Shown in pieces: positions 3,378-63,509 of a DNA stretch of 64,000 bases (position 1 is the stretch's first letter; the number at the start of each line of letters is the position of its first letter). The notes under the pieces were generated by a model. That model was not told where the DNA came from. It made no database searches and worked only from the letters and a program-made list of their open reading frames with translations. The position numbers and the translations under genes were made by a program. Source of the DNA: Methylococcaceae bacterium (GTDB lineage Bacteria; Pseudomonadota; Gammaproteobacteria; Methylococcales; Methylomonadaceae). The DNA is taken from assembly GCA_049296695.1 (NCBI GenBank), contig JBAQSX010000061.1, positions 1 through 64,000 on the forward strand, read 5' to 3'.

Positions 3378-3605
3378 ATGGAAAATCAGCCTTTAATTAG
3401 CGTACCTAATATGGCACAAGAAATTACTCAATTAAAAGCCGCTGTTAGCGAAAAACTCAATAAATGTGAGTCGATTAAATTAGATGTATTAGAAACTGAC
3501 TTAGAACGCATTAAAACTCAGGCAATTATAGAAGGTATTCCTTATCAATTATTAATGAGTTCGATATTACATAAATATGCACAAGGGTATTTAATTGCTA
3601 AATAG
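3378..3605 (+). CDS. Small ribbon-helix-helix (CopG/BrnA-like) antitoxin-family protein; 5' end possibly disrupted by MITE
   Basis: 75 aa; C-terminal AIIEGIPYQLLMSSILHKYAQGYL resembles the IPYQ.LI..L..Y motif of BrnA/CopG-type RHH antitoxins; an upstream ATG at 3221 (MNPNYSEEELAV) is separated from this ORF by the MITE insertion. Confidence 0.5.
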   Translation: MENQPLISVPNMAQEITQLKAAVSEKLNKCESIKLDVLETDLERIKTQAIIEGIPYQLLMSSILHKYAQGYLIAK

Positions 3606-3611
3606 TCACCA

Positions 3612-3653
3612 TAAAAAAAGGCGTAATGTGTTAAACATTACGCCTTTTTATTT
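3612..3653. terminator. Bidirectional rho-independent terminator
   Basis: aaaaaaaggcgtaatgtg ttaaacattacgccttttta: GC-containing stem with A-tract upstream and T-tract downstream. Confidence 0.7.
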
Positions 3654-3719
3654 ATCAGATTAAAATATAAATCTATGTATTTTAGTTTTATATATTTCTG
3701 ATAACCTCTATTACTCAAA

Positions 3720-4097
3720 CTATAACTTTTCTAATTCTTCAATAATTAGTTTTGCTAAATCAAAAAGTTGTTGTGCTTCCGATATATCTACATATTCATC
3801 AATATCATAATCAGCACGATGACGATTTACTTTAAGTTTGTGCATTTGTTCGCCTAAAATTCTTAAAGTTTTATTATCATGTTTTTGAAATTTAATAATT
3901 AGTCTTTCATGACTACCTTTTGGAATTTCACCGTATCGGTTTTTCTTATCAGGATAATCTTGAGCTTTGTCTTTTGCTAAATGATACACAGCATAATAAG
4001 CACGACCCATAACATTACGATAATCTATTTCTTGACTATCAGGATTAATTAATAAGTTTTCGGCAAAACACAAAAAATCTTTAAACGATACGCTCAT
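3720..4097 (-). CDS. HEPN-like domain protein (putative toxin/abortive-infection component)
   Basis: 125 aa; GRAYYAVYHLAK helix typical of HEPN N-terminal helix and C-terminal NRHRADYD basic motif; overlaps upstream ORF by 17 nt. Confidence 0.45.
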   Translation of the reverse strand: MSVSFKDFLCFAENLLINPDSQEIDYRNVMGRAYYAVYHLAKDKAQDYPDKKNRYGEIPKGSHERLIIKFQKHDNKTLRILGEQMHKLKVNRHRADYDIDEYVDISEAQQLFDLAKLIIEELEKL

Positions 4098-4848
4098 GTT
4101 TTTCCCTTGCTTCTAATACATCAATTGAACTGTATTGAAACATTAATACATCGCTCCAAGTATCGTCTAATGTTTCTACGAATAGTTTTGATAATTCCCA
4201 ATTAATTTTTGCTATGTCTTTGACAGGCGAATCAATGTAAATTGTATACACAATGCAATTATCTATAATTTCTATTAAAGAACTAGAAAAATAAAGATTA
4301 TGCGTTTCTAATAGGCTGTAAGCTAATTCACATAATACTTGTGCTTGACCATCGGAAAGCTGGAATTTTTCGCAAATGTTAAATGCCAATCCATTATTAC
4401 AAAAAAAATTTTTTGTTTTAAATTCCTTGTGTAATTGAAATGCTTTTTTAAAGTTGCAAGAGAAATAAAATGATTTTATTGCTCTATTAAGAGCATTAGC
4501 ATTATTAGGAAAATTATTAAGCAATATTTCAGTTTGAAATACAGATTCTTTAATTAAACCACAACTAAATAATGCGCTCATATAATTTAGATGCGTGAAT
4601 AAATCATTTTCATATTGCAATGCTTTTTGATAATTACTGATAACTTGGTTACTGTCATTTTCAAATCCTGCAACTGCACCCAACAACTTATAATATTGGT
4701 AGACTTTTATTTTTCCTTCTAATTTATTAATGTCACTTTTCAATAAATAAATTGTAAATTCATCTGGTTTACGTTTTTGATTAATTAACAATTCAATTTT
4801 ATCTTCTAATTCATGAGTTTTTGCTAAGGGCTGAACCATTTTTATCAC
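4081..4848 (-). CDS. Hypothetical protein (255 aa), co-transcribed with HEPN-like gene
   Basis: Long ORF, very AT-rich, no recognisable motifs; flanked by terminators at 3612-3653 and 4863-4893. Confidence 0.5.
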   Translation of the reverse strand: MIKMVQPLAKTHELEDKIELLINQKRKPDEFTIYLLKSDINKLEGKIKVYQYYKLLGAVAGFENDSNQVISNYQKALQYENDLFTHLNYMSALFSCGLIKESVFQTEILLNNFPNNANALNRAIKSFYFSCNFKKAFQLHKEFKTKNFFCNNGLAFNICEKFQLSDGQAQVLCELAYSLLETHNLYFSSSLIEIIDNCIVYTIYIDSPVKDIAKINWELSKLFVETLDDTWSDVLMFQYSSIDVLEAREKHERIV

Positions 4849-48173: not shown

Positions 48174-50696
48174 ATGAGTACCGCAAAAGAAGAACGCCTG
48201 ATTTTAGCGTTCAAATTACATTCAAAAGTCAATCCCGACCAAGGTAATTTAAGACCTGTCGCCGAAATTATTGACAATAAACTAATAGAATTAAACCCCA
48301 TTAATTTTTGTCATACCAATAAAATTTTTGTCACCGTTGGCTATCAAAATGTTAATGAAAAATTCAAAGAAGGACAATTATTTAGAATACCCGTCAACGT
48401 TGCCGAATATATTAGTACCAATGTAGACCCCTATGCCGCGTCTAAATATGTCACCCAAGGTATTAAAGCAGAACGTTTAAAACCCAATGAATTAGTTGAA
48501 ATAATAGAAGCTGAATTACCTGATAGTAATCATCGTTATGTTGAAATCGGTTATTATCCTAGCACTGAATATATTTTTATTCGCAACAGTGATAGGGATT
48601 GCTTTGGACCTTTTTCGTGGGAACGCAAAGAAGGTGAATCGGGTTTTTATTTATCACTACTCAATGATACCCCCTTATTACGCGCTTACAATATTAGTTT
48701 AGGACAAATATTTAAAATCGATAATGACAGTTTTGAAAACTATGTGTTTGATTGTCAAACCGTGGATAGATATTATCAATTAGTATTAAACATCCATGAT
48801 TTTTTAGAAAACGCCCAGTATTATGAATATGCCTCTGATGAAGAAATTGTACGTTATTGCGCTAAATTAGCAGGCGAAATGGGAACAATGGTTTTTTCTA
48901 AAACCAGTTGGGATGGTTTTAGAAAACTCGCGGTTAATAACGCGCCCTTTGATCAAGGTTTAGGTCGAGAGCGTTTAGCGCGATTATCCAATCTCGCTTC
49001 TGATATTTTTGTAATACAAGAAGATATTCGTGACAATATTGAACGCTTTTTAAGAAGCAATAATGGCGAGCATTTAATTCAAGATTTTATTGAACGCAAA
49101 CGTCCGCAATTATTAGATGAACTGCGCCGCAGTGTCTTAAAAGAAAAAGACAAAGATTTAGAAGAAAAAGAAGATAAGGTTTATCAAATTGAACAGCGTC
49201 TTAAAGATAAAGACAAAGAATTAAAAGAACTCAGTGCCGAAGTTGAACGCAAACGCAAAGAAGCCAATCAAGAGGTTATTTTAGAACATGCCGTGGCGGG
49301 GCGTAATGAAACCGTACAACAATTAGAACAATTAATTGCTGATAAAGAAAAACAATTAACTGATATTAATGAACGCCTCAATTTAGTCTCAGAACTTGTC
49401 GATATTCATCAGAAAATCGAAGAAGGCAAAGTGATTTACAAGCATTATGAAAAAGAAAATGCCTTAATTGTCGAAACCACTAAAAAATTAAAATTAGAGC
49501 GCGATAAAACCGAAGATGAATTACGCACTAAGTTAATTGAATTAAAACCTTTTGTGGAATATATCAACGGTTCATACTTTAGTAATAACAGCGAAAAAAC
49601 AAAATCGGTTTTTGTTGAAATTAATAACCAAAATTACAACGATGTCTTAGAACAACAACGTTTAGTAGTTGAATCAGTTAAACATAATCTACGTTTAAAT
49701 GGGCGTTATTTTGAATCATGGCAAGTAGCGAATTTATTAATCTCCACCCAACAATCCTTTATTACCTTTTTAGCAGGATTACCCGGCGTTGGTAAAACCT
49801 CATTAGCGCGATTATTAACCCAATCACAAGGTTTAAAACCCCGTTTGCAAGAAGTATCAGTAGCGCGGGGTTGGACTTCACAAAAAGATTTAATTGGTTT
49901 TTATAATCCATTAGCGAATCGTTTTCAATCCGCCAATACAGGTTTATATAGTTTTATTGAAGCTTTAAGTGCTGAGAAAAAAGATGAACAGGCAATGGCT
50001 TATGTATTATTAGACGAGGCGAATTTAAGTCCAATTGAACATTATTGGTCAGCCTTTATGGCAATGGCAGACGGCGAAGGGGCAAGAGAATTACGCTTAG
50101 GACAAGATACTTTAACCGTGCCTTCAGTATTACGCTTTTTAGCCACCATTAATTATGACGGTACTACTGAGCCATTAAGTCCACGAGTAGTAGACCGCGC
50201 CCCAGTTATTATTATGGAAAGCTCTGGGGCATTATCAGATGATAATGAAGTTATTAATCAACAATTAATTAACTTGCCCTTATCAGCGGGTGAAATGACT
50301 AAATTATTTGGTTTGGCAAAACAAATACCTGCTTTTCAAAATGATGAGGCGGTTATCTTTAATAAATTACGGCAAATACTCGCTGACCCTAATTTAGAAA
50401 AAGGTCGTCCTTTGAGTATTAGCCAACGTAAAGAAATTGTGATTCGGCAATATTGCGCTCAAGCCAGTTCATTAATGCGCTCCTTTGGTTGTGATGATTT
50501 TAAAGCCTTAGATTTAGCGATTTTGCAACATGTATTACCTCAAGTGCGCGGCACAGGGCATAAATTCGCTAGCCGTTTAGTTGAATTAAAACAAAGTTGT
50601 GATAATGAAGGTTTAAAAGAATCGGCGGCTTATTTAGAAAGAATGCTCGCTTATGGTGAAACAGAATTACATTCTTATGATTTCTTTTGCTGGTAA
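48174..50696 (+). CDS. McrB-like AAA+ (AAA_5) GTPase subunit with ~500-aa N-terminal extension containing a long coiled coil (CoCoNuT CnuB-like)
   Basis: 840 aa; Walker A GLPGVGKTSLARLL (~aa 530), Walker B VLLDEANLSPIEHYW, sensor/Arg-finger region ATINYDGTTEPLSPRVVDRAPVI analogous to McrB TMNTADRS...RRRF; residues ~300-450 K/E-rich heptad coiled coil. Confidence 0.75.
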   Translation: MSTAKEERLILAFKLHSKVNPDQGNLRPVAEIIDNKLIELNPINFCHTNKIFVTVGYQNVNEKFKEGQLFRIPVNVAEYISTNVDPYAASKYVTQGIKAERLKPNELVEIIEAELPDSNHRYVEIGYYPSTEYIFIRNSDRDCFGPFSWERKEGESGFYLSLLNDTPLLRAYNISLGQIFKIDNDSFENYVFDCQTVDRYYQLVLNIHDFLENAQYYEYASDEEIVRYCAKLAGEMGTMVFSKTSWDGFRKLAVNNAPFDQGLGRERLARLSNLASDIFVIQEDIRDNIERFLRSNNGEHLIQDFIERKRPQLLDELRRSVLKEKDKDLEEKEDKVYQIEQRLKDKDKELKELSAEVERKRKEANQEVILEHAVAGRNETVQQLEQLIADKEKQLTDINERLNLVSELVDIHQKIEEGKVIYKHYEKENALIVETTKKLKLERDKTEDELRTKLIELKPFVEYINGSYFSNNSEKTKSVFVEINNQNYNDVLEQQRLVVESVKHNLRLNGRYFESWQVANLLISTQQSFITFLAGLPGVGKTSLARLLTQSQGLKPRLQEVSVARGWTSQKDLIGFYNPLANRFQSANTGLYSFIEALSAEKKDEQAMAYVLLDEANLSPIEHYWSAFMAMADGEGARELRLGQDTLTVPSVLRFLATINYDGTTEPLSPRVVDRAPVIIMESSGALSDDNEVINQQLINLPLSAGEMTKLFGLAKQIPAFQNDEAVIFNKLRQILADPNLEKGRPLSISQRKEIVIRQYCAQASSLMRSFGCDDFKALDLAILQHVLPQVRGTGHKFASRLVELKQSCDNEGLKESAAYLERMLAYGETELHSYDFFCW

Positions 50697-50702
50697 AAAC
50701 CC

Positions 50703-52409
50703 ATGAAAATAACCCTATTCATGGGCAATGAAACACGAGTTTTTAATAATCAGCATGAAATCTATAGTATTCATGCCGATGAAACCGTGTATTTTGAATT
50801 AAGCTTCGCATCGCCCAGTGATGATAGTCCTAGTTTATTTATTGAAGACCATGAATTAGTATTAACGGCTTATCATAAGGATAATGAAACTAAAGTATTT
50901 CGTTCTGAACCTAGCTGTATTTTTCATGAATTTTTTGGTTTAGTGATAGCGCGGCTTTATATTAATGAGCAGTGTATTGAATGTCGTTTTGATGTCAGTA
51001 TTAAAAAAAGCCAAGCGGTTCAAGTTGAACAAATGATTGGCTATTTAACGCAACAACAAGATGAAATTATGCGGATATGTTTAGCCACCACGCCTGTGAA
51101 TAATGCCGCGAATACTGACCCTGAAAAATTATTAACCACCGCTGAAACTTTTGTTAATACTTTAATGGCTTGTCGTTTAGAATTACAAAGCCATTTACGC
51201 AAACGTTTAATTCCTGTCAAACAAGCCGCGTGGAAATCTGAGCAACAAAGTGATATTGACCCCTTTGATATTATTTTTAATTTAGACGCATTAGAACCCG
51301 TATTAGGCGGCGGTGATGTCATTGTTAATGGGCGTAGTTTTACCATTAAAGATACCGAAATTACCAGCTTAACCGAAACCGCTAATGTCAGTGAAAATAC
51401 CATTTTATTAGGCGGCATTTATTCAATGCGGCGATTAATTAATCATTTATTACTAGCATTAAATCAAGCCGTTGCTAGCAATAAAAAAGAATTAGTTGTT
51501 GAAATAGAATATGAATCCTTAGCACAAGTTTTATTACGCGTCACTGCCTTTAAAATAAAACACCGCTCAGAGCAGTTATTATTAAGACTAGAAGAATTTA
51601 TCCGTTATTTTGAACATACTTTAAAAATTAATTATAACGGTGAACAACGTCCAATCATGACTCCTTTTGTGCGGGCTTCGCGGGTTTATCGGCGGTTATT
51701 TGAACAATTACACGACTGGTATTTATGCAATGAAGCCTCGCTGGAAAGTCGTAATTATTTAGCTAAATTACGCTCAGTTACCAAGCTTTATGAATTGGTG
51801 AGTTTATTTAAACTTATTGATTATTTGAATGCTAAAAATTGGCAAGTCACGCACACGCAATGGCTTTCTGAAACAGAATTTGTGCCGTCATTATTAGTAT
51901 TTGAGCGTGAGGATTTAAAATTAACCCTGCATTATGAAGCTAAAATATTTGCTTATGATGAAAATACTCGGCATTTAGATTTAGTCGATGTTAAGCATTC
52001 ACGTTTTAGTCATGACTATAATTATTGGTGTCCTGATTTTATTGTGCGTTTAGAGAATACTAAGAAAACCGCTTATTTTATTTTAGATGCTAAATATAGC
52101 TCAGCCGAAAGTATTAAACATCAGTATTTGCCGAGTTTATTAGAAAAGTATTTTATGAATATGGCAGTTTATGATGCTAATCGACAAGTATTAAGCCAAG
52201 AGCTTATTATGGGCATTATTGCTTTATTTCCAGATAAGGAATTGGCAAGCCCTGTATATATGTATAACTCGGCTAAATATGGGATTTATAAACAACCGTT
52301 AAAATTACCGATTATTACAGGTTTTCCGCTTACTTCGGTGTCGGATAAAATCACTTATCCATTATTAGATAGGTTATTTGAGATTATTGAAGGGCAATTA
52401 CATTTTTAA
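50703..52409 (+). CDS. McrC-like PD-(D/E)xK nuclease subunit with N-terminal extension
   Basis: 568 aa; starts 7 nt after the upstream McrB-like stop; C-terminal D...CPDFIV...ILDAKY motif equivalent to McrC PD...(D/E)xK. Confidence 0.7.
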   Translation: MKITLFMGNETRVFNNQHEIYSIHADETVYFELSFASPSDDSPSLFIEDHELVLTAYHKDNETKVFRSEPSCIFHEFFGLVIARLYINEQCIECRFDVSIKKSQAVQVEQMIGYLTQQQDEIMRICLATTPVNNAANTDPEKLLTTAETFVNTLMACRLELQSHLRKRLIPVKQAAWKSEQQSDIDPFDIIFNLDALEPVLGGGDVIVNGRSFTIKDTEITSLTETANVSENTILLGGIYSMRRLINHLLLALNQAVASNKKELVVEIEYESLAQVLLRVTAFKIKHRSEQLLLRLEEFIRYFEHTLKINYNGEQRPIMTPFVRASRVYRRLFEQLHDWYLCNEASLESRNYLAKLRSVTKLYELVSLFKLIDYLNAKNWQVTHTQWLSETEFVPSLLVFEREDLKLTLHYEAKIFAYDENTRHLDLVDVKHSRFSHDYNYWCPDFIVRLENTKKTAYFILDAKYSSAESIKHQYLPSLLEKYFMNMAVYDANRQVLSQELIMGIIALFPDKELASPVYMYNSAKYGIYKQPLKLPIITGFPLTSVSDKITYPLLDRLFEIIEGQLHF

Positions 52410-55032: not shown

Positions 55033-58000
55033 TTACTTCAATCCCTTATGCAAATCCTGCAAACAATTCACATCACCCGCATCTAATTCACCCAAAGCAT
55101 AACAAGCCGCTCTTGCCCCCGCCATTGTGGTGTAATAAGGTACACGATGTTGCAACGCTTCACGGCGCATGGTAAATGAATCCGAAATCGCTTTTGTGCC
55201 TTCGGTAGTATTAATGATTAATTGAATCTGGTCATTTTTAATCATATCCACTGTATTAGGACGACCTTCATTGACTTTATAAACTTCTTCGCAAGGAATA
55301 CCCGCTGATTTTAAATAACGCGCCGTGCCACCTGTTGCCACAATTTCATAATTCTTTGCCACTAACATTTGCGCCACTTCGGGTAATTTTATTTTATCCG
55401 CGTCACGAATACTAATTAATACTTTACCGCTAGTATTCAAATTAATTCCAGCAGCGCGTTGTGATTTAGCAAAAGCTTCACCAAAAGTTTTACCCACACC
55501 CATAACCTCACCAGTGGATTTCATTTCAGGGCCTAATAAAGAATCTACTCCGGGGAATTTCACAAAGGGGAACACCGCTTCTTTGACGGAAAAATAATCA
55601 GGAATCACTTCTTCAGTAATGCCTTGCTGGGTTAAGGTTTGCCCAACCATCACGCGAGCCGCAATTTTAGCGAGTGCGTAACCTGTGGCTTTAGAGACAA
55701 ACGGCGCGGTGCGTGAGGCTCTGGGATTGACTTCTAACACATAAATCTCATCACCTTGAATGGCAAATTGCGTATTCATCAAACCGCGAACGCCCAAAGC
55801 CTCTGCCATTTTGCCGACTTGTTCGCGCAAACGGTCTTGTAATTCGGGTTTTAAATCATAAGGCGGCAACGAACACGCCGAATCGCCCGAATGCACACCC
55901 GCTTGCTCGATGTGTTCCATCAAACCACCGATTAATACCCGTTCACCGTCATAAATCGCGTCTACGTCCATTTCCACCGCATCATCTAAGAAACGGTCAA
56001 GCAGCACAGGCGAATCATTCGACACGCTCACCGCTTCTTTCATGTAACGTTGCAAACCTTCTTCATTCACCACAATTTCCATTGCCCGACCGCCCAACAC
56101 ATAAGACGGACGCACTACTAAGGGATAACCCAAGTCACGCGCCGCATTAATGGCTTGCTCAACCGAACGCGCTGTAGCGTTAGGGGGTTGTTTTAATTGC
56201 AAACGTTCTAATAATTTTTGGAAACGTTCGCGGTCTTCTGCTAAGTCGATTGAATCAGGTGATGTGCCGATAATGGGAACGCCAGCCGCTTCTAAAGCGC
56301 GAGCCAATTTTAACGGCGTTTGTCCACCGTATTGAACAATTACACCTTTAGGTTTTTCTTTATAAACGATTTCTAAAACGTCTTCTAAAGTTAATGATTC
56401 AAAATATAATCTATCCGAAGTATCAAAATCGGTTGATACTGTTTCAGGATTACAATTAATCATAATGGTTTCATAACCATCTTCGCGCAACGCTAATGCC
56501 GCATGAACACAGCAATAATCAAATTCAATACCTTGTCCAATGCGATTAGGGCCGCCGCCTAAAATAATAATTTTTTCTTTGTCAGATACTCGCGCTTCAC
56601 ATTCCTCTTCATAAGTTGAATATAAATAAGCAGTATCAGAAGCAAATTCAGCCGCGCACGAATCTATACGTTTATATACAGGACGTATATTATTTTTATG
56701 GCGAATATTTCGCACTTCTATTTCAGAGGCATCTAATAATTGCGCTAAGCGTAAATCAGAAAAACCTTTGCGTTTTAATTGATACAATTCACCCGCTTTT
56801 AAAGTCGATAAGGTTTTTGTTTTTAAGGATTGCTCAATTAAAACTAAGTCTTCTAATTGCGCTAAAAACCACGGGTCTATTTTACATAAACCATGTATTT
56901 CTTCTAAAGATAAACCTTTACGAAACGCATCGGCAACATAACGCAATCTATCAGGGCCAGGGTGTCTTAATTCACGTTTAATTCTATCGTAAGCATCATT
57001 AGCATGAATATCAATAATTTCATTCAATCCACAAATACCAATTTCTAAACCGCGTAATGCCTTTTGCAATGATTCTTGGAAGGTGCGCCCAATTGCCATT
57101 ACCTCGCCCACGGATTTCATTTGCGTGGTTAATCTATCATCGGCTTGCGGGAATTTTTCAAAAGTAAAACGTGGTACTTTTACTACGACATAATCAATTG
57201 CAGGTTCAAATGAGGCTGGGGTTTTACCGCCTGTTATTTCATTTTTTAATTCGTCTAAGGTATAACCAACAGCGAGTTTTGCCGCGACTTTAGCAATAGG
57301 AAAACCCGTAGCTTTTGAAGCCAAAGCCGAAGAGCGTGATACTCTAGGATTCATTTCAATAATAATCATGCGACCATCAACAGGATTAATCGCCACCTGT
57401 ACATTTGAACCGCCAGTATCTACGCCTATTTCTCTTAATATCGCTAAAGAAACATTACGCAGGATTTGATATTCTTTATCAGTTAGTGTTTGCGCGGGCG
57501 CGACAGTTATTGAATCCCCAGTATGTACACCCATTGGGTCAAAGTTTTCAATTGAACAAACAATAATACAATTGTCTTTTGAATCTCGCACCACTTCCAT
57601 TTCATATTCTTTCCAACCCAATACCGATTCTTCAATTAATAATTCATTAGTGGGTGATAAATATAAACCGCGTTCGCAAATCTCCATAAATTCTTGCTTA
57701 TTATAAGCAATACCACCGCCACTACCGCCCATTGTAAATGAAGGTCTAATAACTGTGGGATAACCGACTTCTTTTTGCGCGAGCAACGCTTCTTCCATTG
57801 AATGCGCGGTTTTTGATTTAGCCACTTCATAACCAATTCGCGCCATTGCGTCATTAAATAATTGACGGTCTTCGGCTTTATTAATTGCCTCTTTAGTCGC
57901 GCCTATCATTTCAACATTATATTTAGCCAATACCCCGTGTTTATCTAAAGCCAAGGCGCAATTTAATGCGGTTTGTCCGCCCATTGTCGGTAATATCGCA

Positions 58001-58251
58001 TCGGGGCGTTCTTTGGCAATAATCTTTTCTACGGTTTGCCAATCAATTGGCTCAATATAAATCGCGTCCGCCATGTCGGGGTCGGTCATAATAGTGGCGG
58101 GATTAGAATTAACGAGGATGACTCGATAACCTTCTTCGCGTAGGGCTTTACAGGCTTGTGTGCCTGAATAATCAAATTCACACGCTTGCCCGATAACAAT
58201 AGGGCCTGCACCTAATAATAAAATGGATTTTATGTCTGTTCTTTTTGGCAT
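55033..58251 (-). CDS. carB: Carbamoyl-phosphate synthase large subunit
   Basis: 1072 aa; duplicated ATP-grasp domains, canonical CarB. Confidence 0.97.
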
Positions 58252-58458
58252 GGTTTACCGCTTTGTTTTAAGTTAATTATAATGAGTTTGAGCGATTATT
58301 TTAAAATATCGCCGTGAATAGGATTAATAACTCTTTTTGGTAGTAGTAAAAATAGAGTGATTATTAATATAGATTAATTGGTAGAGACGTTGCAGTGCAA
58401 CGTCTGTACAATCGAAGTATTTTAAGAAATCACTCACTGTTTAGCACTACCATTCTTT

Positions 58459-58641
58459 TCAACTTTGATTAAAATCTGAATTATCAATCCCTTGTTCAAT
58501 AATTATATGATGGTAATCAAGGCTAGTATTGTGACTCGCTTCTTTTTCTGATACTAAGTAATGAATACCCAGTCTTTTAAATAACAATAATAACAGTTTT
58601 TCATCTTCGTTATTTTCAATATCTAAGGTTATTTGTAACAT
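58459..58641 (-). CDS. Small hypothetical protein (60 aa) immediately downstream of HEPN gene
   Basis: ORF starts 2 nt after HEPN stop; acidic; no recognisable motif. Confidence 0.3.
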   Translation of the reverse strand: MLQITLDIENNEDEKLLLLLFKRLGIHYLVSEKEASHNTSLDYHHIIIEQGIDNSDFNQS

Positions 58642-58642
58642 A

Positions 58643-59092
58643 TTAACCTCCCGTTGTATTTAATAAGTTATTACCATAAACTAAAGTATTCTGCACAATA
58701 ATAATTAATTCAGCCGTTAAAGTTTTAGCCTCAGCAAACAGAGCAATTAAATCCTCTTCAATATATTCGTGGACAATTTCGTTTCTTAAATCTTTTATGT
58801 TTCTAATTAAATCCATGCTAGTAAATAACTTTCTTTTATGTGCGTTATTGACCACATCAATTAATGTCCCTTGATGCTCAAATTCGCACGCATCAATAGT
58901 TCTAAACACTTTACGGATTAAAAAATCAATGGTTCTAGCAAAACGACTGCACAAGTTTTCATAATGATTAATACTCTCTATTGATAGCTCTTGGGTTAAA
59001 TCAACGTTATTGATTTGTGAGTAGGAATAATCTAACCAAAATAATTGTTTTTCTAAAAGGTCTAACTGGGTTTTTAATAAATCTAAGCTCAT
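58643..59092 (-). CDS. HEPN-domain protein (HepT-like toxin of MNT/HEPN pair)
   Basis: 149 aa; RNEIVHEY = R-x4-H HEPN catalytic motif; 4-nt overlap with upstream MNT gene. Confidence 0.7.
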   Translation of the reverse strand: MSLDLLKTQLDLLEKQLFWLDYSYSQINNVDLTQELSIESINHYENLCSRFARTIDFLIRKVFRTIDACEFEHQGTLIDVVNNAHKRKLFTSMDLIRNIKDLRNEIVHEYIEEDLIALFAEAKTLTAELIIIVQNTLVYGNNLLNTTGG

Positions 59093-59373
59093 AATTCTAT
59101 AGCGGTAGGAAAAATTAATCTAACAAAAGGTGATTCCAGTTTTCCTGAGTCGATAATTATATCTATTTTCTGTTCACCAAAGGTTTCATAAAACTGCCAT
59201 TTTATCGTTCGCAGGTGTTGTTTGCTTAATTGCTCAGAGAGGATTAATAAATCTATATCGCCACCTGTTTTGGTATCATCGGTGCGACTGCCAAATAAAA
59301 ATAGACGGGCGTTTTTATCTAATTGTTGCGTAGTGGTTTTTAATAGATTTATTTGTGCTGGGCTGAGGCGCAT
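59089..59373 (-). CDS. Minimal nucleotidyltransferase (MntA-like antitoxin)
   Basis: 94 aa; LFGSRTDDTKTGGDIDLLIL = GS...D.D nucleotidyltransferase motif. Confidence 0.8.
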   Translation of the reverse strand: MRLSPAQINLLKTTTQQLDKNARLFLFGSRTDDTKTGGDIDLLILSEQLSKQHLRTIKWQFYETFGEQKIDIIIDSGKLESPFVRLIFPTAIEL

Positions 59374-59395
59374 AACTTAAGTTGATGCTTTTTAT

Positions 59396-60322
59396 TTAGT
59401 TAATAAGTATAGAATTCAAATATTCTATTAAACAATCAGGAGTCTCAGCATAACCTGAAAAAAGTTCTATTGCTTGCTCATTGCTTAATTTAGAACTAAA
59501 AGAAAACTTTATTTTCTCTTTGAAATATTTTTTTTGATTATTTGAGTCTTGCAAAATCAAGTCAATTATAGTAACTACAAACCACATTTCATATTTTCCT
59601 CTAAATATTTTTCGACATTCACAATTAGAGAACTCAATAATTTTTTTATTTAAATTATCTTGTGAAACTTCAAGTGCAGTAGGGAAGTTTTGCTGTATTG
59701 TTTCAAGTGTATAATTTTTAGAGATAGATTCTAAAGTAAACGTTATAAAGTTTCTTGTTTCTCTATCACCGCCTAATTTATCGCTCAAATTAACACCTGT
59801 TTCTTTTTTTTCTATATTTTTAATATCAATTAGACTAGCATACCAAGCATTAAATAAAAATATCGCTTGATGAAATTCATTCTGTCTTTGAGTATAAAGA
59901 TTTAAACACATTTGATAAGCTTCACTAACTTCTGATAATCCTAAAGAGTTTTTTATAATTTCTCTGAAAACATTTACAGATGTATAAAAATTTTCAATCG
60001 AATAATAAGGAGTTTCAAAAATATCTGGATTTATTAAAGGTTTATCAAAGTCTCTATCTATAAAAAAAGCTTTTTTATACTTTTTATATTCTGTATGAAT
60101 TGATATTAAACGGTAAACAGTTAATACTTTATCTTTACCACCACATTTTATTGGATAGTAGTTTTCTGTAAACCGCTTTATCCTTGGAGAATAATAAGGA
60201 CTATCTTTTCCCTCAAAAAAACAAAATAAACCTGTTTTATTTTGATTTATATGAAGCATAAATTCTTGATAAGCAACTTGAGGTTTATCTCGACCTTTTC
60301 TCAGTTCTTCTAAATAAGTCAT
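59396..60322 (-). CDS. DUF4435/TOPRIM-like protein (PARIS AriB-like)
   Basis: 308 aa; conserved Glu (FCFFEGKD) and DxD (FFIDRDFD) consistent with divergent TOPRIM; directly downstream of an ABC-type ATPase. Confidence 0.55.
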   Translation of the reverse strand: MTYLEELRKGRDKPQVAYQEFMLHINQNKTGLFCFFEGKDSPYYSPRIKRFTENYYPIKCGGKDKVLTVYRLISIHTEYKKYKKAFFIDRDFDKPLINPDIFETPYYSIENFYTSVNVFREIIKNSLGLSEVSEAYQMCLNLYTQRQNEFHQAIFLFNAWYASLIDIKNIEKKETGVNLSDKLGGDRETRNFITFTLESISKNYTLETIQQNFPTALEVSQDNLNKKIIEFSNCECRKIFRGKYEMWFVVTIIDLILQDSNNQKKYFKEKIKFSFSSKLSNEQAIELFSGYAETPDCLIEYLNSILIN

Positions 60323-60324
60323 TA

Positions 60325-61683
60325 TTAAACAATAATATTTTTTGATAATGTAATATATTGATCTAAACCAATAGCATATTCATCCAATTCGTTTTCAAAA
60401 ATAAAAGGAGAGTGTGTAACTGCTAACAAAAAGTCGCATTTTTTAGATTTAAGCACATCTGGAAGTAATTGTTTTTGCCATATCATGCTTAAAGATAACT
60501 CTGGCTCATCAAATAAGACTATGAACCGTTCTTCTTTAGAAAGATAAACTTTAGAAAACATTGAAACTATTTGTTTTTCACCTGATGAAAGATACTTCAA
60601 TAAGATTTCGTCATTCGTCAAGCTTGATTTAATAAAAATTTTTATTGCGCTTTCATCATAAAATACTTTCTTCCCTATTAAATAATTATTACAAACATCC
60701 TTAAATGTTTTTATTGAATTATCAAGTTCTTTTTGTTTTTCATAAATTTCGATTAATTTCTTCAAAAAATATAATGAATAAGGATTCGTTATTTTTTTAT
60801 TCATAACGATATTTCTTATATTATCTTTATCTGCTTTAGGGAGTTGATTACCGACTCTTGCCAATATAATATCAATACCATTCTCATCAATTTTATCTAA
60901 ACAACTATTGTCATTTCCTTCAAAGCCATTAACTAACTGGCTCATAAATTCTGATGTAATTTTTGAAAAGCCTTCTTTCAATAATTGGTCAATTTCATGT
61001 TCAATGCTTCTAAATCTTTTAGACACATCATCCATGCCAAAATGAATAACAGTATCTTCTTCATCCAATAAGTTATCTTCATCGTAACCAAGATTATGTA
61101 AATCTTCTTCTACACGTCTAAAAGTTGGAAAATAAAGCACCTTTAAATCTTTAATTTCAGATCTAATTTTTTTTCTACAAGTATCTAAAACTTTACCTAA
61201 ACTTCCTTCTTTATTAAGCATTTCGAGTTCCTCAAGTACCCGAAAAACATGGTGCGTAGGATATTTTCTTATTTTTGAACCTAAGAGCTTTTCATCCAGT
61301 CGCCGCCAATCACCTTTGCTCTTAATAAACTCATTTCTAAGTAATTCAAAGCGAGAAAATCCAATATCATTTATCAGCTCTTCTAAAATGGGGTGTTTGT
61401 ATAGCCTTTTAATCAATTCGTCTATATTATTTTTGTGTATTTCAATAGAATTTCCTTTTGAAAAAGTCAATTGAACTCTATTAAAGTTAAATTCACTTAA
61501 TCGGGGGAAATTTTGAGTTAATATATAATAAAAAATATTCAGAACTTGTGTTTTTCCAAGTCCATTTTCACCAATCAAAATTTTAATATTTTCGTTAAAA
61601 AGAATATGTACATCATGTGTACCAAAAAGACCATACACTGAAAAAGATTTAATTGGACTTAGAGTATTCATGTTTATTCTCAA
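60325..61683 (-). CDS. ABC/OLD-family AAA ATPase (AAA_15/AAA_21-like; PARIS AriA-like)
   Basis: 452 aa; N-terminal IKSFSVYGLFG...IKILIGENGLGKTQVLN (Walker A), C-terminal Walker B/H-loop IVLFDEPELSL...LLAVTHSP. Confidence 0.65.
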   Translation of the reverse strand: MRINMNTLSPIKSFSVYGLFGTHDVHILFNENIKILIGENGLGKTQVLNIFYYILTQNFPRLSEFNFNRVQLTFSKGNSIEIHKNNIDELIKRLYKHPILEELINDIGFSRFELLRNEFIKSKGDWRRLDEKLLGSKIRKYPTHHVFRVLEELEMLNKEGSLGKVLDTCRKKIRSEIKDLKVLYFPTFRRVEEDLHNLGYDEDNLLDEEDTVIHFGMDDVSKRFRSIEHEIDQLLKEGFSKITSEFMSQLVNGFEGNDNSCLDKIDENGIDIILARVGNQLPKADKDNIRNIVMNKKITNPYSLYFLKKLIEIYEKQKELDNSIKTFKDVCNNYLIGKKVFYDESAIKIFIKSSLTNDEILLKYLSSGEKQIVSMFSKVYLSKEERFIVLFDEPELSLSMIWQKQLLPDVLKSKKCDFLLAVTHSPFIFENELDEYAIGLDQYITLSKNIIV

Positions 61684-61750
61684 TTTATCTTATAAAAAAT
61701 TTTACAGGTGTTAGCTAAGCAATTTATTGCTAACTTCGATTTTCAATTTG

Positions 61751-62338
61751 TCAAAACCTAACATCTTCATAAATATCACCCAACTTCAAAACCGTTTGAT
61801 AATTCTCACAACGAATCAACAATTCTTCATTGTCTTCTAATAAAGCCGTTTGCCATTCATTATGGTTATCACGCACATAATACTCACAACGTTTTTTATT
61901 AGCATCAATGAGTAAATAATAACGCAAACTAGGCAGACTTAAATAAGCCAGTAACTTTTCTCTACGGTCTATTTTTGCGGTGCTATTGGATAATACTTCG
62001 GTAATTAAACAAGGTTTTTCTTTATAGTATTCTTGGTTGTCTTCAGTATCACAAACTAATAACACATCAGGATAATAATAAGCATTATGCTGGGCGATTT
62101 TGAGTTTCATATCACTCATAAACACGCCGCATTGCCCACCCCGCGCAGATGAGCGTAATTGAAAAAAGATATTACCTGCAATGCGATTATGCCGCTCACT
62201 CGAGCCTGCCATTGCATAAATATAACCGTCTTTATATTCATGCCGAATGGTAGCGGTTAATTCAAAATCTAAATAATCTTGCTCGGTTAAATAAGGGATT
62301 TTTTGCAAGGCGGTCATAGTATTAACCTCATTTAGCAA
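61751..62338 (-). CDS. Uma2-family (DUF820) PD-(D/E)xK endonuclease
   Basis: 195 aa (possibly starting at M8); Y.DG.IYAMAGSSERHNRI...PDV Uma2 signature. Confidence 0.75.
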   Translation of the reverse strand: MLNEVNTMTALQKIPYLTEQDYLDFELTATIRHEYKDGYIYAMAGSSERHNRIAGNIFFQLRSSARGGQCGVFMSDMKLKIAQHNAYYYPDVLLVCDTEDNQEYYKEKPCLITEVLSNSTAKIDRREKLLAYLSLPSLRYYLLIDANKKRCEYYVRDNHNEWQTALLEDNEELLIRCENYQTVLKLGDIYEDVRF

Positions 62339-62384
62339 TGAATCAGATTATTAAACCTAATTCATTGCTTATTTAAAACGTGAG

Positions 62385-63509
62385 TTACCCAGCGTTATCC
62401 ATCATTTCAATAAACTTATCGAATAAACTTTCCACATCATGCGGCCCGGGGCTGGCTTCGGGGTGTCCTTGGAAACTAAACGCAGGGCAGTCGGTGCGTG
62501 CGATGCCTTGCAAACTGCCATCAAATAAAGAGTGATGCGTGGCAATTAAATTAGCAGGTAAGCTGGTTTCATCAACGGCAAAACCATGATTCTGACTGCT
62601 AATCATCACCCGACCTGTGGCTTTTTCCTGCACAGGGTGGTTTGCGCCGTGATGACCGAATTTCATTTTTTCCGTTTTCGCGCCGCTGGCTAAGGCTAAT
62701 AATTGATGCCCTAAACAAATGCCAAACACAGGCAACTGGGTTGCTAAAATGGTTTTAATGGCTTCAATGGCGTAAGTGCAAGGCTCAGGGTCGCCCGGGC
62801 CGTTAGATAAAAATACGCCATCGGGGTTCAGGGCAAGCACTTCGCTGGCGGGGGTTTTGGCGGGAACAACGGTGACTTTGCAACCGCGATTAGCCAGTAA
62901 CCGTAAGATATTGCGTTTCACGCCAAAGTCATAAGCGACAACGTGTTTCGTTAAGTTGGGCGCAGTCTTGTGTCCATCGCGTAAATGCCAGATGTTTTCT
63001 GTCCAAGTGTAGCTTTCGCTGGTGGTGACTTCTTTGGCTAAATCCAAACCTTTTAAACCTGCAAAACCTGCAATCGCGCTAGTCGCCGTTGCCACGTCTA
63101 GGTTTTCCCCCGCAATAATACAACCGCGTTGCGCGCCTTTATCACGCAGGATACGCGTTAATTTGCGCGTGTCGATTTCAGCGATAGCGACTACGTTGTT
63201 ATCAATCAAATACTGTTGCAAAGTTTTTTCACTGCGCCAATTGCTTGCCAGCAAAGGCAAGTCCCGAATCACTAAACCACCGACAAACACGCCGCGTGAC
63301 TCGTCGTCTTCGCTGTTTGTGCCGGTGTTGCCAATGTGCGGATAGGTTAAGGTGACTATTTGCTGGGCGTAAGAGGGGTCGCTGAGAATTTCTTGATAAC
63401 CGCTCATAGCGGTGTTAAACACCACTTCGCCCACGCTACAACCGTCTATACCTATGGAAACACCGTTAAATACTGTGCCGTCTTCTAATACTAATAATGC
63501 TGAAATCAT
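62385..63509 (-). CDS. carA: Carbamoyl-phosphate synthase small subunit (glutamine amidotransferase)
   Basis: 374 aa; GATase catalytic GICLGHQ motif. Confidence 0.95.

Follow-up and report, generated by a model that had tools for sequence, protein, structure and literature searches.

A 64,000-nt stretch of a Methylococcaceae contig (JBAQSX010000061.1), hereafter the window, carries a low-GC insertion between carA and carB in which six genes share one orientation and lie close together. Two of these genes, ariA and ariB, encode an intact PARIS, a known anti-phage system, and are an ordinary member of it. Both ORFs lie on the minus strand, at the positions reported in an earlier reading of the sequence alone. 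The locus is organized as follows:

62385..63509, carA, flank of the insertion
58252..62384, minus strand, low-GC insertion of 4,133 nt between carA and carB, context outside the PARIS system
61751..62338, minus strand, Uma2, insertion ORF
60325..61683, minus strand, ariA, ABC ATPase with a sensor/scaffold role by homology (AAA_15, AAA_21, PADLOC AriA, phmmer, hhalign and Foldseek)
59396..60322, minus strand, ariB, predicted DUF4435/TOPRIM nuclease effector of 308 aa (Pfam DUF4435 and PADLOC AriB)
59089..59373, minus strand, small nucleotidyltransferase (NTase), insertion ORF
58643..59092, minus strand, HEPN-like 149-aa ORF (tentative assignment), insertion ORF
58459..58641, minus strand, 60-aa ORF, insertion ORF
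55033..58251, carB, flank of the insertion

The arrangement of the pair is operon-like, with a spacer of 2 nt between the ariA stop codon and the ariB ATG (TAA-TA-ATG). This agrees with the second gene having been placed 3 nt downstream in the sequence-only reading, as ariB starts 3 nt past the stop. For ariA, a TTG at 61683 gives 452 aa and an ATG at 61671 gives 448 aa; the ATG is preferred by gene callers and homologues, and the product is more likely the 448-aa form. Compared to hundreds of homologues, both ORFs are full length.

According to the published detection rule (Rousset et al. 2022, PMC9122126), PARIS consists of adjacent genes that score at least 32 bits for AAA_15 or at least 27 bits for AAA_21, and at least 27 bits for DUF4435. 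The window pair satisfies this rule fully, with 37.1 bits for AAA_15 (cut-off 32.1), 32.4 bits for AAA_21 (cut-off 27) and 167.8 bits for DUF4435 (cut-off 27; E 4.3e-49), from genes 2 nt apart on one strand. In PADLOC, the AriA model PDLC04164 (6.5e-30) is the first of 62 matches of the ATPase, and the AriB model PDLC02983 (1.1e-44) is the sole match of the 308-aa protein. The PARIS identity proposed from sequence alone is borne out by each of the checks suggested for it, the two profile comparisons among them. PARIS occurs in approximately 5% of prokaryotic genomes (PMC9122126). Taking profile scores, full length and purifying selection together, the ariA/ariB assignment is far beyond chance.

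For the 452-aa protein, an ABC-type ATPase had been recognized from GENGLGKT, FDEPELSL and VTHSP, each of which was located at checked coordinates. The features of AriA are the following:

61549..61572, minus strand, Walker A GENGLGKT, in ungapped alignment to 8V45_A; G-K-T invariant in 36 homologues
61114..61134, minus strand, YFPTFRR motif, YFPAFRT in E. coli AriA; Y-F-P-T-x-R invariant in the family
61051..61083, minus strand, acidic loop DEDNLLDEEDT, residues 201-211 in 452-aa numbering, aligned by hhalign to the basic E. coli loop bearing the radial-pore residue R172
60571..60591, minus strand, ABC signature LSSGEKQ, invariant in the family and aligned with E. coli LSSGERQ
60505..60510, minus strand, Walker B D392-E393 (FDEPELSL), invariant in the family; E393 corresponds to the E. 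coli catalytic E393
60412..60414, minus strand, H-loop histidine (VTHSP), T-H-S-P invariant and aligned with E. coli CTHSP

Walker A, signature, Walker B and H-loop are thus all present as catalytic motifs and invariant across the 36 homologues, and K44 of Walker A (452-aa numbering) corresponds to K39 of E. coli AriA. The Walker A lysine K39 and the Walker B glutamate E393 are needed for defence by E. coli PARIS. On the PADLOC AriA model, window AriA reaches 102.5 bits, against 106.4 bits for E. coli-type AriA as a calibration. In addition, phmmer matches window AriA to solved AriA (8V45/8UX9) at 8e-14, and hhalign aligns its family to E. coli AriA with a probability of 98.8% (E 7.7e-17, 358 columns, residues 20-424). 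The best 14 PDB matches of an AF2 model of the protein (pLDDT 77, pTM 0.75) are all AriA chains (Foldseek, E 2e-16 to 2e-13, TM 0.53-0.66), followed by PtuA as the next family at 1.6e-9. The AF2 model, Foldseek and hhalign all show the AriA fold, including its helical insertions.

AriB matches no Pfam family besides DUF4435, Toprim_Old included (E up to 0.01). The motifs quoted for the 308-aa protein in the sequence-only reading, FFEGKD (E37, D40) and IDRDFD (D89, D91), were both found at checked coordinates, and the residues of interest are distributed as follows:

60203..60214, minus strand, TOPRIM glutamate motif E37-G-K-D40, aligned by hhalign to E. coli E26 and D30, directly past model strand 1
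60050..60058, minus strand, TOPRIM D89-R-D91, aligned by hhalign to E. coli D88-R-E90, where model strand 83-88 ends
59993..59995, minus strand, E110 in SIENFY, aligned by hhalign to E122 of the E. coli motif SLENYF; E110 and N111 invariant
59594..59602, minus strand, R241-G-K243, invariant and corresponding to E. coli R236-G-H (hhalign)

All of 53 diverse homologues, at 28-56% identity, retain E37, D40, D89, D91 and E110 unchanged, and in the model these acidic residues follow strands 1 and 3. In E. coli AriB, the E26A substitution abolishes defence, and R236 of that protein has been modelled in contact with the tRNA D-loop (PMC12409363). The solved AriB chain was matched neither by phmmer with the single window sequence nor by profiles of 35 and 53 homologues; profile searches of the PDB leave the window and E. 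coli AriB families unlinked. The link came instead from comparing folds and from a profile-profile alignment, for which the sequence of E. coli AriB was recovered via a Pseudoalteromonas plasmid homologue; the window AriB family aligns to it with an E value of 0.0015 and a probability of 17% (hhalign). Because this alignment is weak, the residue mapping rests on the agreement of motif and fold. The acidic residues of the TOPRIM site are present in an alignment that is statistically weak (E 0.0015), and the fold is that of a TOPRIM within DUF4435. As a calibration, the PADLOC AriB model gives 151 bits for window AriB and only 34.9 bits for the characterised E. coli AriB. E. coli B185 AriB no longer scores with Pfam DUF4435.

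The E. coli B185 PARIS, known from structures 8UX9 and 8V45-8V49, resides on a P4-like satellite, whereas the window system is chromosomal, in the carA-carB insertion, and is carried by neither a satellite nor a prophage. The genes are adjacent in both systems and near-equal in size (448 and 308 aa in the window, 464 and ~306 aa in E. coli B185). Common to the AriA proteins are the Walker A lysine, YFPxFR, LSSGE(K/R)Q, the DEPE Walker B and the THSP H-loop, and common to the AriB proteins are E-G-(K/R)-x-D, D-R-(D/E)-F, S-(I/L)-E-N and R-G-(K/H). The solved E. coli chains are the best matches to the folds of both window proteins, at an identity of about 15-17% for AriA (Foldseek structural alignments) and 10-13% for AriB. 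The PARIS pair between carA and carB belongs to a branch outside the studied ones.

The two genes appear to be inherited together. An AriA homologue lies directly upstream of ariB on the same strand in 73 of the 74 reference-genome loci with upstream DNA, and likewise upstream of ariB in all three distant viral loci. Measured against one Methylococcales relative, dN/dS equals 0.12 for AriA and 0.17 for AriB, marking purifying selection on both. Phage collections contain almost no members of the clade: IMG/VR gives three matches, all distant, GenBank phages show no match to the AriAB clade, and plasmid matches do not exceed 29% identity.

The conserved pairing bears on the idea that a housekeeping ATPase of the SMC/RecF/RecN type merely sits beside an unrelated gene by accident. 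In favour of this idea, the N-terminal P-loop is matched weakly by SMC_N (23.2 bits) and by RecF (17.5 bits), but these matches fall far under the cut-offs of 40 and 172, respectively, and cover only the Walker A region (residues 20-61 for SMC_N). The adjacency of ariA and ariB is kept throughout the loci counted above with a single exception, and the genes sit in a low-GC insertion that close relatives do not have. Profile cut-offs, the Foldseek matches to AriA chains and the conserved pairing refute the housekeeping reading, whose chance of being correct is negligible. The pattern that the sequence-only reading had named as fatal to its proposal, a 308-aa protein without DUF4435 likeness and an ATPase grouping with SMC/RecF/RecN, was not observed.

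As for the insertion itself, 77 of 80 related loci have a distance of -14 to 1,438 nt from carA to carB. Five close relatives are among those without the insertion, their carB following carA after 23-143 nt. Direct or inverted repeats at the insertion flanks are no more than chance, promoter- and terminator-like sites around it are as frequent as in shuffled sequence, and none of the six insertion ORFs matches an integrase or transposase family. The 149-aa ORF shows HEPN matches below threshold only and no match among PDB sequences; its RNEIVH motif and NTase partner tentatively suggest a HEPN protein. Among ten other window ORFs tested, no restriction-modification (R-M) system was found that PARIS could back up; a cluster of R-M size, at 17-23.6 kb, consists of chemotaxis and GGDEF genes. 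In Methylococcales, the spacer between carA and carB is a possible hotspot for defence-gene insertion.

The tight packing and shared orientation of the six genes in a single insertion could point to a unit larger than two genes, in which Uma2, the NTase/HEPN-like pair or the 60-aa ORF acts with AriAB. However, none of these neighbours accompanies AriAB in any of 80 related reference-genome loci, and in the closest relative (L002) the pair is flanked by other genes, namely, MazEF and DUF4160/DUF2442. A larger system was rejected on this lack of conservation, and we consider it quite improbable.

A further alternative is that the pair represents another ABC-ATPase defence system, such as a split Class 1/2 OLD, Gabija, Septu/retron PtuAB, AbiL or MADS3-4. 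Septu/retron PtuA is the next closest ATPase to window AriA by both sequence and structure, and it too is an ABC ATPase that forms oligomers and holds a nuclease. Many PtuA models match the window ATPase (PADLOC, 1e-13 to 1e-8), as do PtuA structures (Foldseek, 1e-9 to 1e-6). AriA models and structures nonetheless beat PtuA by many orders of magnitude, and NCBIfam PtuA yields 24.2 bits against a cut-off of 500. The partner gene separates the systems as well: PtuB of Septu is an HNH nuclease and Gabija has a UvrD helicase, whereas the window partner is a DUF4435/TOPRIM protein whose only PADLOC match is the AriB model. OLD (Thermus scotoductus 6P74, Burkholderia 6NK8) and GajA are single-chain fusions of ATPase and TOPRIM that act on DNA, in contrast to the two window proteins, whose ORFs are separated by a stop codon and the 2-nt spacer. 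[quoted passage not shown] Published comparisons of AbiLii with AriB are without significant sequence similarity, and window AriB matches neither the AbiLii nor the mad4 models (PADLOC, E up to 0.01). Altogether, another system of this kind is very unlikely. Where the sequence-only reading left a choice between PARIS and, more generally, a split OLD-family nuclease, PARIS is the precise description and the OLD-family wording holds only at the superfamily level.

The analysis shows, for ariA-ariB, how the genes are arranged, which family they belong to and what folds they encode, and also that the catalytic residues are intact, that the pairing is conserved and that selection is purifying. That the pair of AAA_15-type ATPase and DUF4435 protein is a functional two-gene PARIS is highly probable, its function being assigned by homology with E. 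coli B185. In E. coli, the AriA hexamer sequesters AriB in a 6:3 complex, from which a trigger brings about ATP-dependent release. Of the E. coli interface residues, R28 corresponds to K39 of window AriB, and R31 is unconserved (hhalign). The triggers are anti-restriction or other small acidic phage proteins (Ocr, Ptr1 and Ptr2), and AriB cleaves host tRNA Lys-UUU, Thr-UGU and Asn-GUU, leading to abortive infection.

By homology, window AriA, whose ABC ATPase is interrupted by helical insertions, would form oligomers (in E. coli, a trimer of dimers) that serve as a scaffold, binding AriB monomers near the ATP sites and holding the nuclease inactive. A phage protein produced early in infection would bind AriA, a step dependent on ATP, and thereby free AriB. 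The free AriB dimer would then use its two-metal TOPRIM site to cut particular host tRNAs in the anticodon stem-loop, so that translation halts and the infection aborts. Judged from the E. coli system, sequestration and release, oligomeric state, tRNA substrate and abortive infection are most likely to apply to the window PARIS as well. The sensing of anti-restriction proteins, which the sequence-only reading had assigned to AriA, is documented for the E. coli system only and is not to be assumed for the window clade.

A refinement of this PARIS assignment, rather than a reading that excludes it, is that the same architecture responds to another input or yields another output. In this clade, AriA would recognize other phage proteins, e.g., basic instead of acidic DNA mimics, or AriB would cut other tRNAs or another RNA or DNA substrate. 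The loop in the R172 radial-pore region is inverted in charge, being acidic in window AriA (net charge -7) and in all 36 family members (-1 to -7, mean -4.2) and basic in E. coli (+4). The central-pore residues R116 and R119 of E. coli AriA fall in a gap in the window alignment (hhalign). On the AriB side, the tRNA-holding K60 and K64 correspond to Y55 and C60 in the window (hhalign, in a low-confidence region) and are thus not kept as lysines. Pore residues are also poorly conserved over 11 PARIS clades (PMC11464382), and a distant homologue from E. coli O42 has a different defence profile (PMC9122126).

However, the alignments are of low confidence at exactly these regions, and the pLDDT of the acidic loop is below 50. 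Moreover, the AriA region equivalent to insertion sequence 1 has a net charge of +6, so basic surfaces may exist elsewhere on AriA. A different input or output appears to us a real possibility, at somewhat less than even chance. Since AriB is 10-13% identical to its E. coli counterpart and the pore arginines, loop charge and K60/K64 are unconserved, the trigger class and substrate may differ, and the trigger and tRNA target of the window clade are probably not those of E. coli. For the large, mainly chromosomal clade as a whole (cyanobacteria, Bacteroidota and Methylococcales), the conserved acidic loop and the absence of the tRNA-holding lysines suggest that the trigger and tRNA set may be different; that it senses phage proteins other than acidic DNA-mimic anti-restriction proteins and cuts other tRNAs is conceivable, though on the doubtful side. 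If true, the name "anti-restriction induced" would misdescribe most of the PARIS family.

Taken alone, the window PARIS matters little, and standard defence-annotation tools would flag the locus. Core DUF4435-type PARIS is, however, only remotely related in sequence to the sole clade studied structurally and biochemically, so a member of this clade would be well suited to testing how widely the sequester-and-release tRNase mechanism and its triggers apply. The charge-inverted loop of AriA offers a concrete hypothesis on trigger specificity, open to mutagenesis.

The two open reading frames (ORFs) that the sequence-only reading had taken for a PARIS-like anti-phage module were recovered on the minus strand as described, with every quoted motif present at verified coordinates:

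59396..60322, minus strand: ariB ORF, 308 aa
60325..61683, minus strand: ariA ATPase ORF, 452 aa when read from a TTG

For ariA, an ATG at 61671, yielding 448 aa, is favored by the gene calls on an identical public contig and by homologue lengths. The ariA/ariB junction reads TAA-TA-ATG, leaving a 2-nt spacer.

Profiles, folds, and gene pairing support the assignment of both genes to PARIS. The ATPase scored above the cut-offs of Pfam AAA_15 (37.1 bits; cut-off, 32.1) and AAA_21 (32.4 bits; cut-off, 27), as did the 308-aa protein for DUF4435 (167.8 bits; E, 4.3e-49; cut-off, 27). Two-gene PARIS, present in 5.2% of genomes, was defined and detected with these same Pfam profiles and thresholds (Rousset et al. 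2022, PMC9122126). Among PADLOC models, AriA (PDLC04164) was the top of 62 matches to the ATPase (E, 6.5e-30), and AriB (PDLC02983) was the sole match to the 308-aa protein (E, 1.1e-44). In a calibration, the reference AriB of Escherichia coli B185 reached only 34.9 bits on the PADLOC AriB model, and E. coli-type AriA scored 106 bits on the AriA model versus 102.5 bits for the window AriA. The fit of the window pair to the PARIS models thus equals or exceeds that of the reference. A housekeeping origin of the ATPase was also considered, and both profiles failed, with 23.2 bits for SMC_N (cut-off, 40) and 17.5 bits for RecF (cut-off, 172).

The current Pfam DUF4435 profile did not match the experimentally characterized E. 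coli B185 AriB (8UX9_A) in a direct scan, and precomputed annotations likewise give no DUF4435 score for this protein and its close relatives (e.g., L082, a comparison locus, 3594..4526). A PARIS search relying on Pfam would therefore overlook the very clade of the type system, which the PADLOC AriB model still catches at 35 to 39 bits.

The window AriA matches the solved AriA chains 8V45, 8UX9, and 8V46 by sequence (phmmer, ~8e-14), and an hhalign comparison of a 36-sequence family profile with E. coli AriA spans 358 columns (probability, 98.8%; E, 7.7e-17). In this family, the LSSGEKQ signature, the THSP H-loop, the AriA-typical YFPxFR motif, Walker A K44 (E. coli K39), and Walker B E393 (E. 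coli E393) are invariant. The 14 best PDB matches of its AlphaFold2 model (pLDDT, 77; pTM, 0.75) in Foldseek are all AriA chains (E, 2e-16 to 2e-13; TM up to 0.66), followed by PtuA of retron Ec83/Septu (1.6e-9).

For AriB, no PDB chain was reached by sequence, either with the single sequence or with profiles of 35 and 53 homologues. Its predicted structure (pLDDT, 85.6; pTM, 0.80) has as sole significant Foldseek matches the solved AriB chains 8UX9_A and 8V46_D (E, ~5e-5; probability, 1.0; TM, 0.50; 13% identity). Residues 5 to 298 of E. coli AriB were recovered via a Pseudoalteromonas plasmid PARIS locus, and an alignment of the E. coli-type family was built and compared profile to profile with the window's family. 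In the resulting, statistically weak alignment (E, 0.0015; probability, 17%; 204 columns), every published catalytic residue of E. coli AriB falls on a residue invariant in 53 diverse members of the window family:

E. coli E26, window E37: TOPRIM metal site; E26A abolishes defense
E. coli D30, window D40: TOPRIM metal site
E. coli D88, window D89: TOPRIM metal site
E. coli E90, window D91: TOPRIM metal site
E. coli E122, window E110: TOPRIM metal site
E. coli R236, window R241: modeled tRNA D-loop contact in E. coli

In the model, E37 lies directly past strand 1 and D89-x-D91 closes strand 83-88, the usual TOPRIM layout of an acidic residue past strand 1 and a DxD at a strand end. Because the metal-site residues map to invariant positions and this layout is present in the model, the AriB nuclease looks catalytically competent.

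Relatives of the window AriB (36 to 81% identity) were found at 80 loci in a scan that took one genome per species. Of these loci, 74 include DNA upstream of the ariB homologue, and in 73 of them the gene immediately preceding it on the same strand encodes an AriA homologue; three distant viral-contig relatives share this arrangement. In the exception, L070 (2504..6936; AriB homologue, 41% identity), the preceding gene encodes a 334-aa protein that is apparently not an ATPase, and a 439-aa AAA ATPase is encoded ~2 kb away in divergent orientation; possible explanations are an exchange of the partner and decay of the system. None of the pair's other neighbors in the window accompanies it across the 80 loci, and the functional unit is therefore the two genes. 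Relative to the closest relative with DNA, a Methylococcales MAG (L002; 79 to 81% identity), dN/dS equals 0.12 for ariA and 0.17 for ariB. An exhaustive profile search found 1,730 clusters of window-type AriB at 50% identity, whereas the E. coli B185 type returned only 37 relatives in a search that was word-indexed instead.

The pair is located within a low-GC insertion between host genes:

55033..58251: carB, flank of the insertion
58252..62384, minus strand: insertion between carA and carB, 4,133 nt, six co-oriented ORFs
58459..58641: 60-aa ORF
58643..59373, minus strand: small nucleotidyltransferase and HEPN-like 149-aa ORF, overlapping by 4 nt
61751..62338, minus strand: Uma2-family putative restriction endonuclease (Pfam, 6.1e-32), directly upstream of ariA
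62385..63509: carA, flank of the insertion

Together with ariA and ariB, these ORFs make up the insertion. Among 80 metagenomic loci with related carA genes, 77 have a carB that starts -14 to 1,438 nt past carA, and the gap is 23 to 143 nt in five close relatives (L083 to L087; 79 to 85% identity); carA and carB are therefore split by an insertion in the window. The lowest GC and GC3 values among the window's 34 long ORFs are those of ariA and ariB (ariB, 25.7% and 14.2%, versus means of 38% and 30%). Neither an integrase nor flanking repeats were found for the insertion, and promoter and terminator signals showed no excess there, promoter-like sites overall occurring at chance frequency. For its expression, carB may rely on read-through or use a promoter-like site at 58305..58276. 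While E. coli PARIS is satellite-borne, the window's AriB clade hardly occurs in phage collections and has only distant representatives on plasmids.

The Uma2 gene matches the PADLOC candidate-defense family PDC-S03 (3e-27) and is not kept beside PARIS in other genomes. The 94-aa nucleotidyltransferase matches NTP_transf_2 (1.9e-6) and, weakly, NCBIfam MntA_antitoxin (18 bits; cut-off, 60) and PDB HI0073 (E, 0.04). The 149-aa ORF carries an RNEIVH (Rx4H) motif, with sub-threshold HepT-like and HEPN Pfam matches (E, 0.011 and 0.041). The two probably form a divergent MNT/HEPN toxin-antitoxin-like pair; the tightly coupled 60-aa ORF had no matches.

On a metagenome contig whose carA is 84% identical (L088, 1..2555), carA and Uma2 follow in the same order, succeeded by a 92-aa ORF resembling, by eye, the N-terminus of an Mrr-type restriction enzyme, and no PARIS. 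This one short contig hints that the carA-carB spacer beside Uma2 is a hotspot with variable defense cargo. In L002 (1..10052), PARIS, a MazEF pair, and a DUF4160/DUF2442 pair have a NifU-like gene on one side and a class-V aminotransferase (IscS/NifS-like) on the other, and so again lie inside a normally adjacent housekeeping pair. In Lyngbya sp. PCC 8106 (L010), the PARIS pair is directly downstream of carB. A second candidate lies ~7 kb from PARIS in the window:

48174..52409, plus strand: gene for an 840-aa protein, then gene for a 568-aa protein

The 840-aa protein matches the PADLOC candidate-defense model PDC-M26A (3.2e-25) and no Pfam family at E <= 1e-5, and the 568-aa protein has no Pfam or PADLOC match at that threshold. 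These genes may be a second, uncharacterized defense pair.

In E. coli, AriA assembles into a six-subunit propeller that keeps three AriB monomers close to its ATP sites; phage proteins, among them T7 Ocr and T5 Ptr1 and Ptr2, bind to AriA ATP-dependently, and AriB is freed, dimerizes, and cuts the anticodon stem-loops of tRNA-Lys(UUU), Thr(UGU), and Asn(GUU), leading to translation arrest (PMC11464382, PMC12409363). By analogy, the window AriA would assemble and sequester AriB near its ATP sites; ATP-dependent binding of a phage protein to AriA would be followed by release and dimerization of AriB, which would cleave a tRNA anticodon stem-loop and halt translation.

In the alignments, the catalytic and signal-transducing parts are conserved, but those setting specificity are not. 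Opposite the E. coli AriA central-pore residues R116 and R119, both arginines, the window AriA has an alignment gap, in a region of low alignment confidence. Past a shared "GY," likewise at low alignment confidence, E. coli AriA has a loop with R172 and a net charge of +4, whereas the window AriA has DEDNLLDEEDT (-7), and this loop is acidic in 36 of 36 family members (mean, -4.2). The E. coli AriB tRNA "tweezer" lysines K60 and K64 correspond, again with low confidence, to Y55 and C60. Since these regions align with low confidence, the differences are a lead rather than a result; those in the pore agree with the poor conservation of pore residues among 11 PARIS clades (PMC11464382). The window's clade may respond to a different trigger class and cut a different tRNA target, at somewhat less than even odds.

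Overall, the evidence supports an ordinary, intact PARIS system belonging to a populous but experimentally untouched clade. The system type is already known; novelty would lie in the trigger or target of its clade, should these indeed differ.
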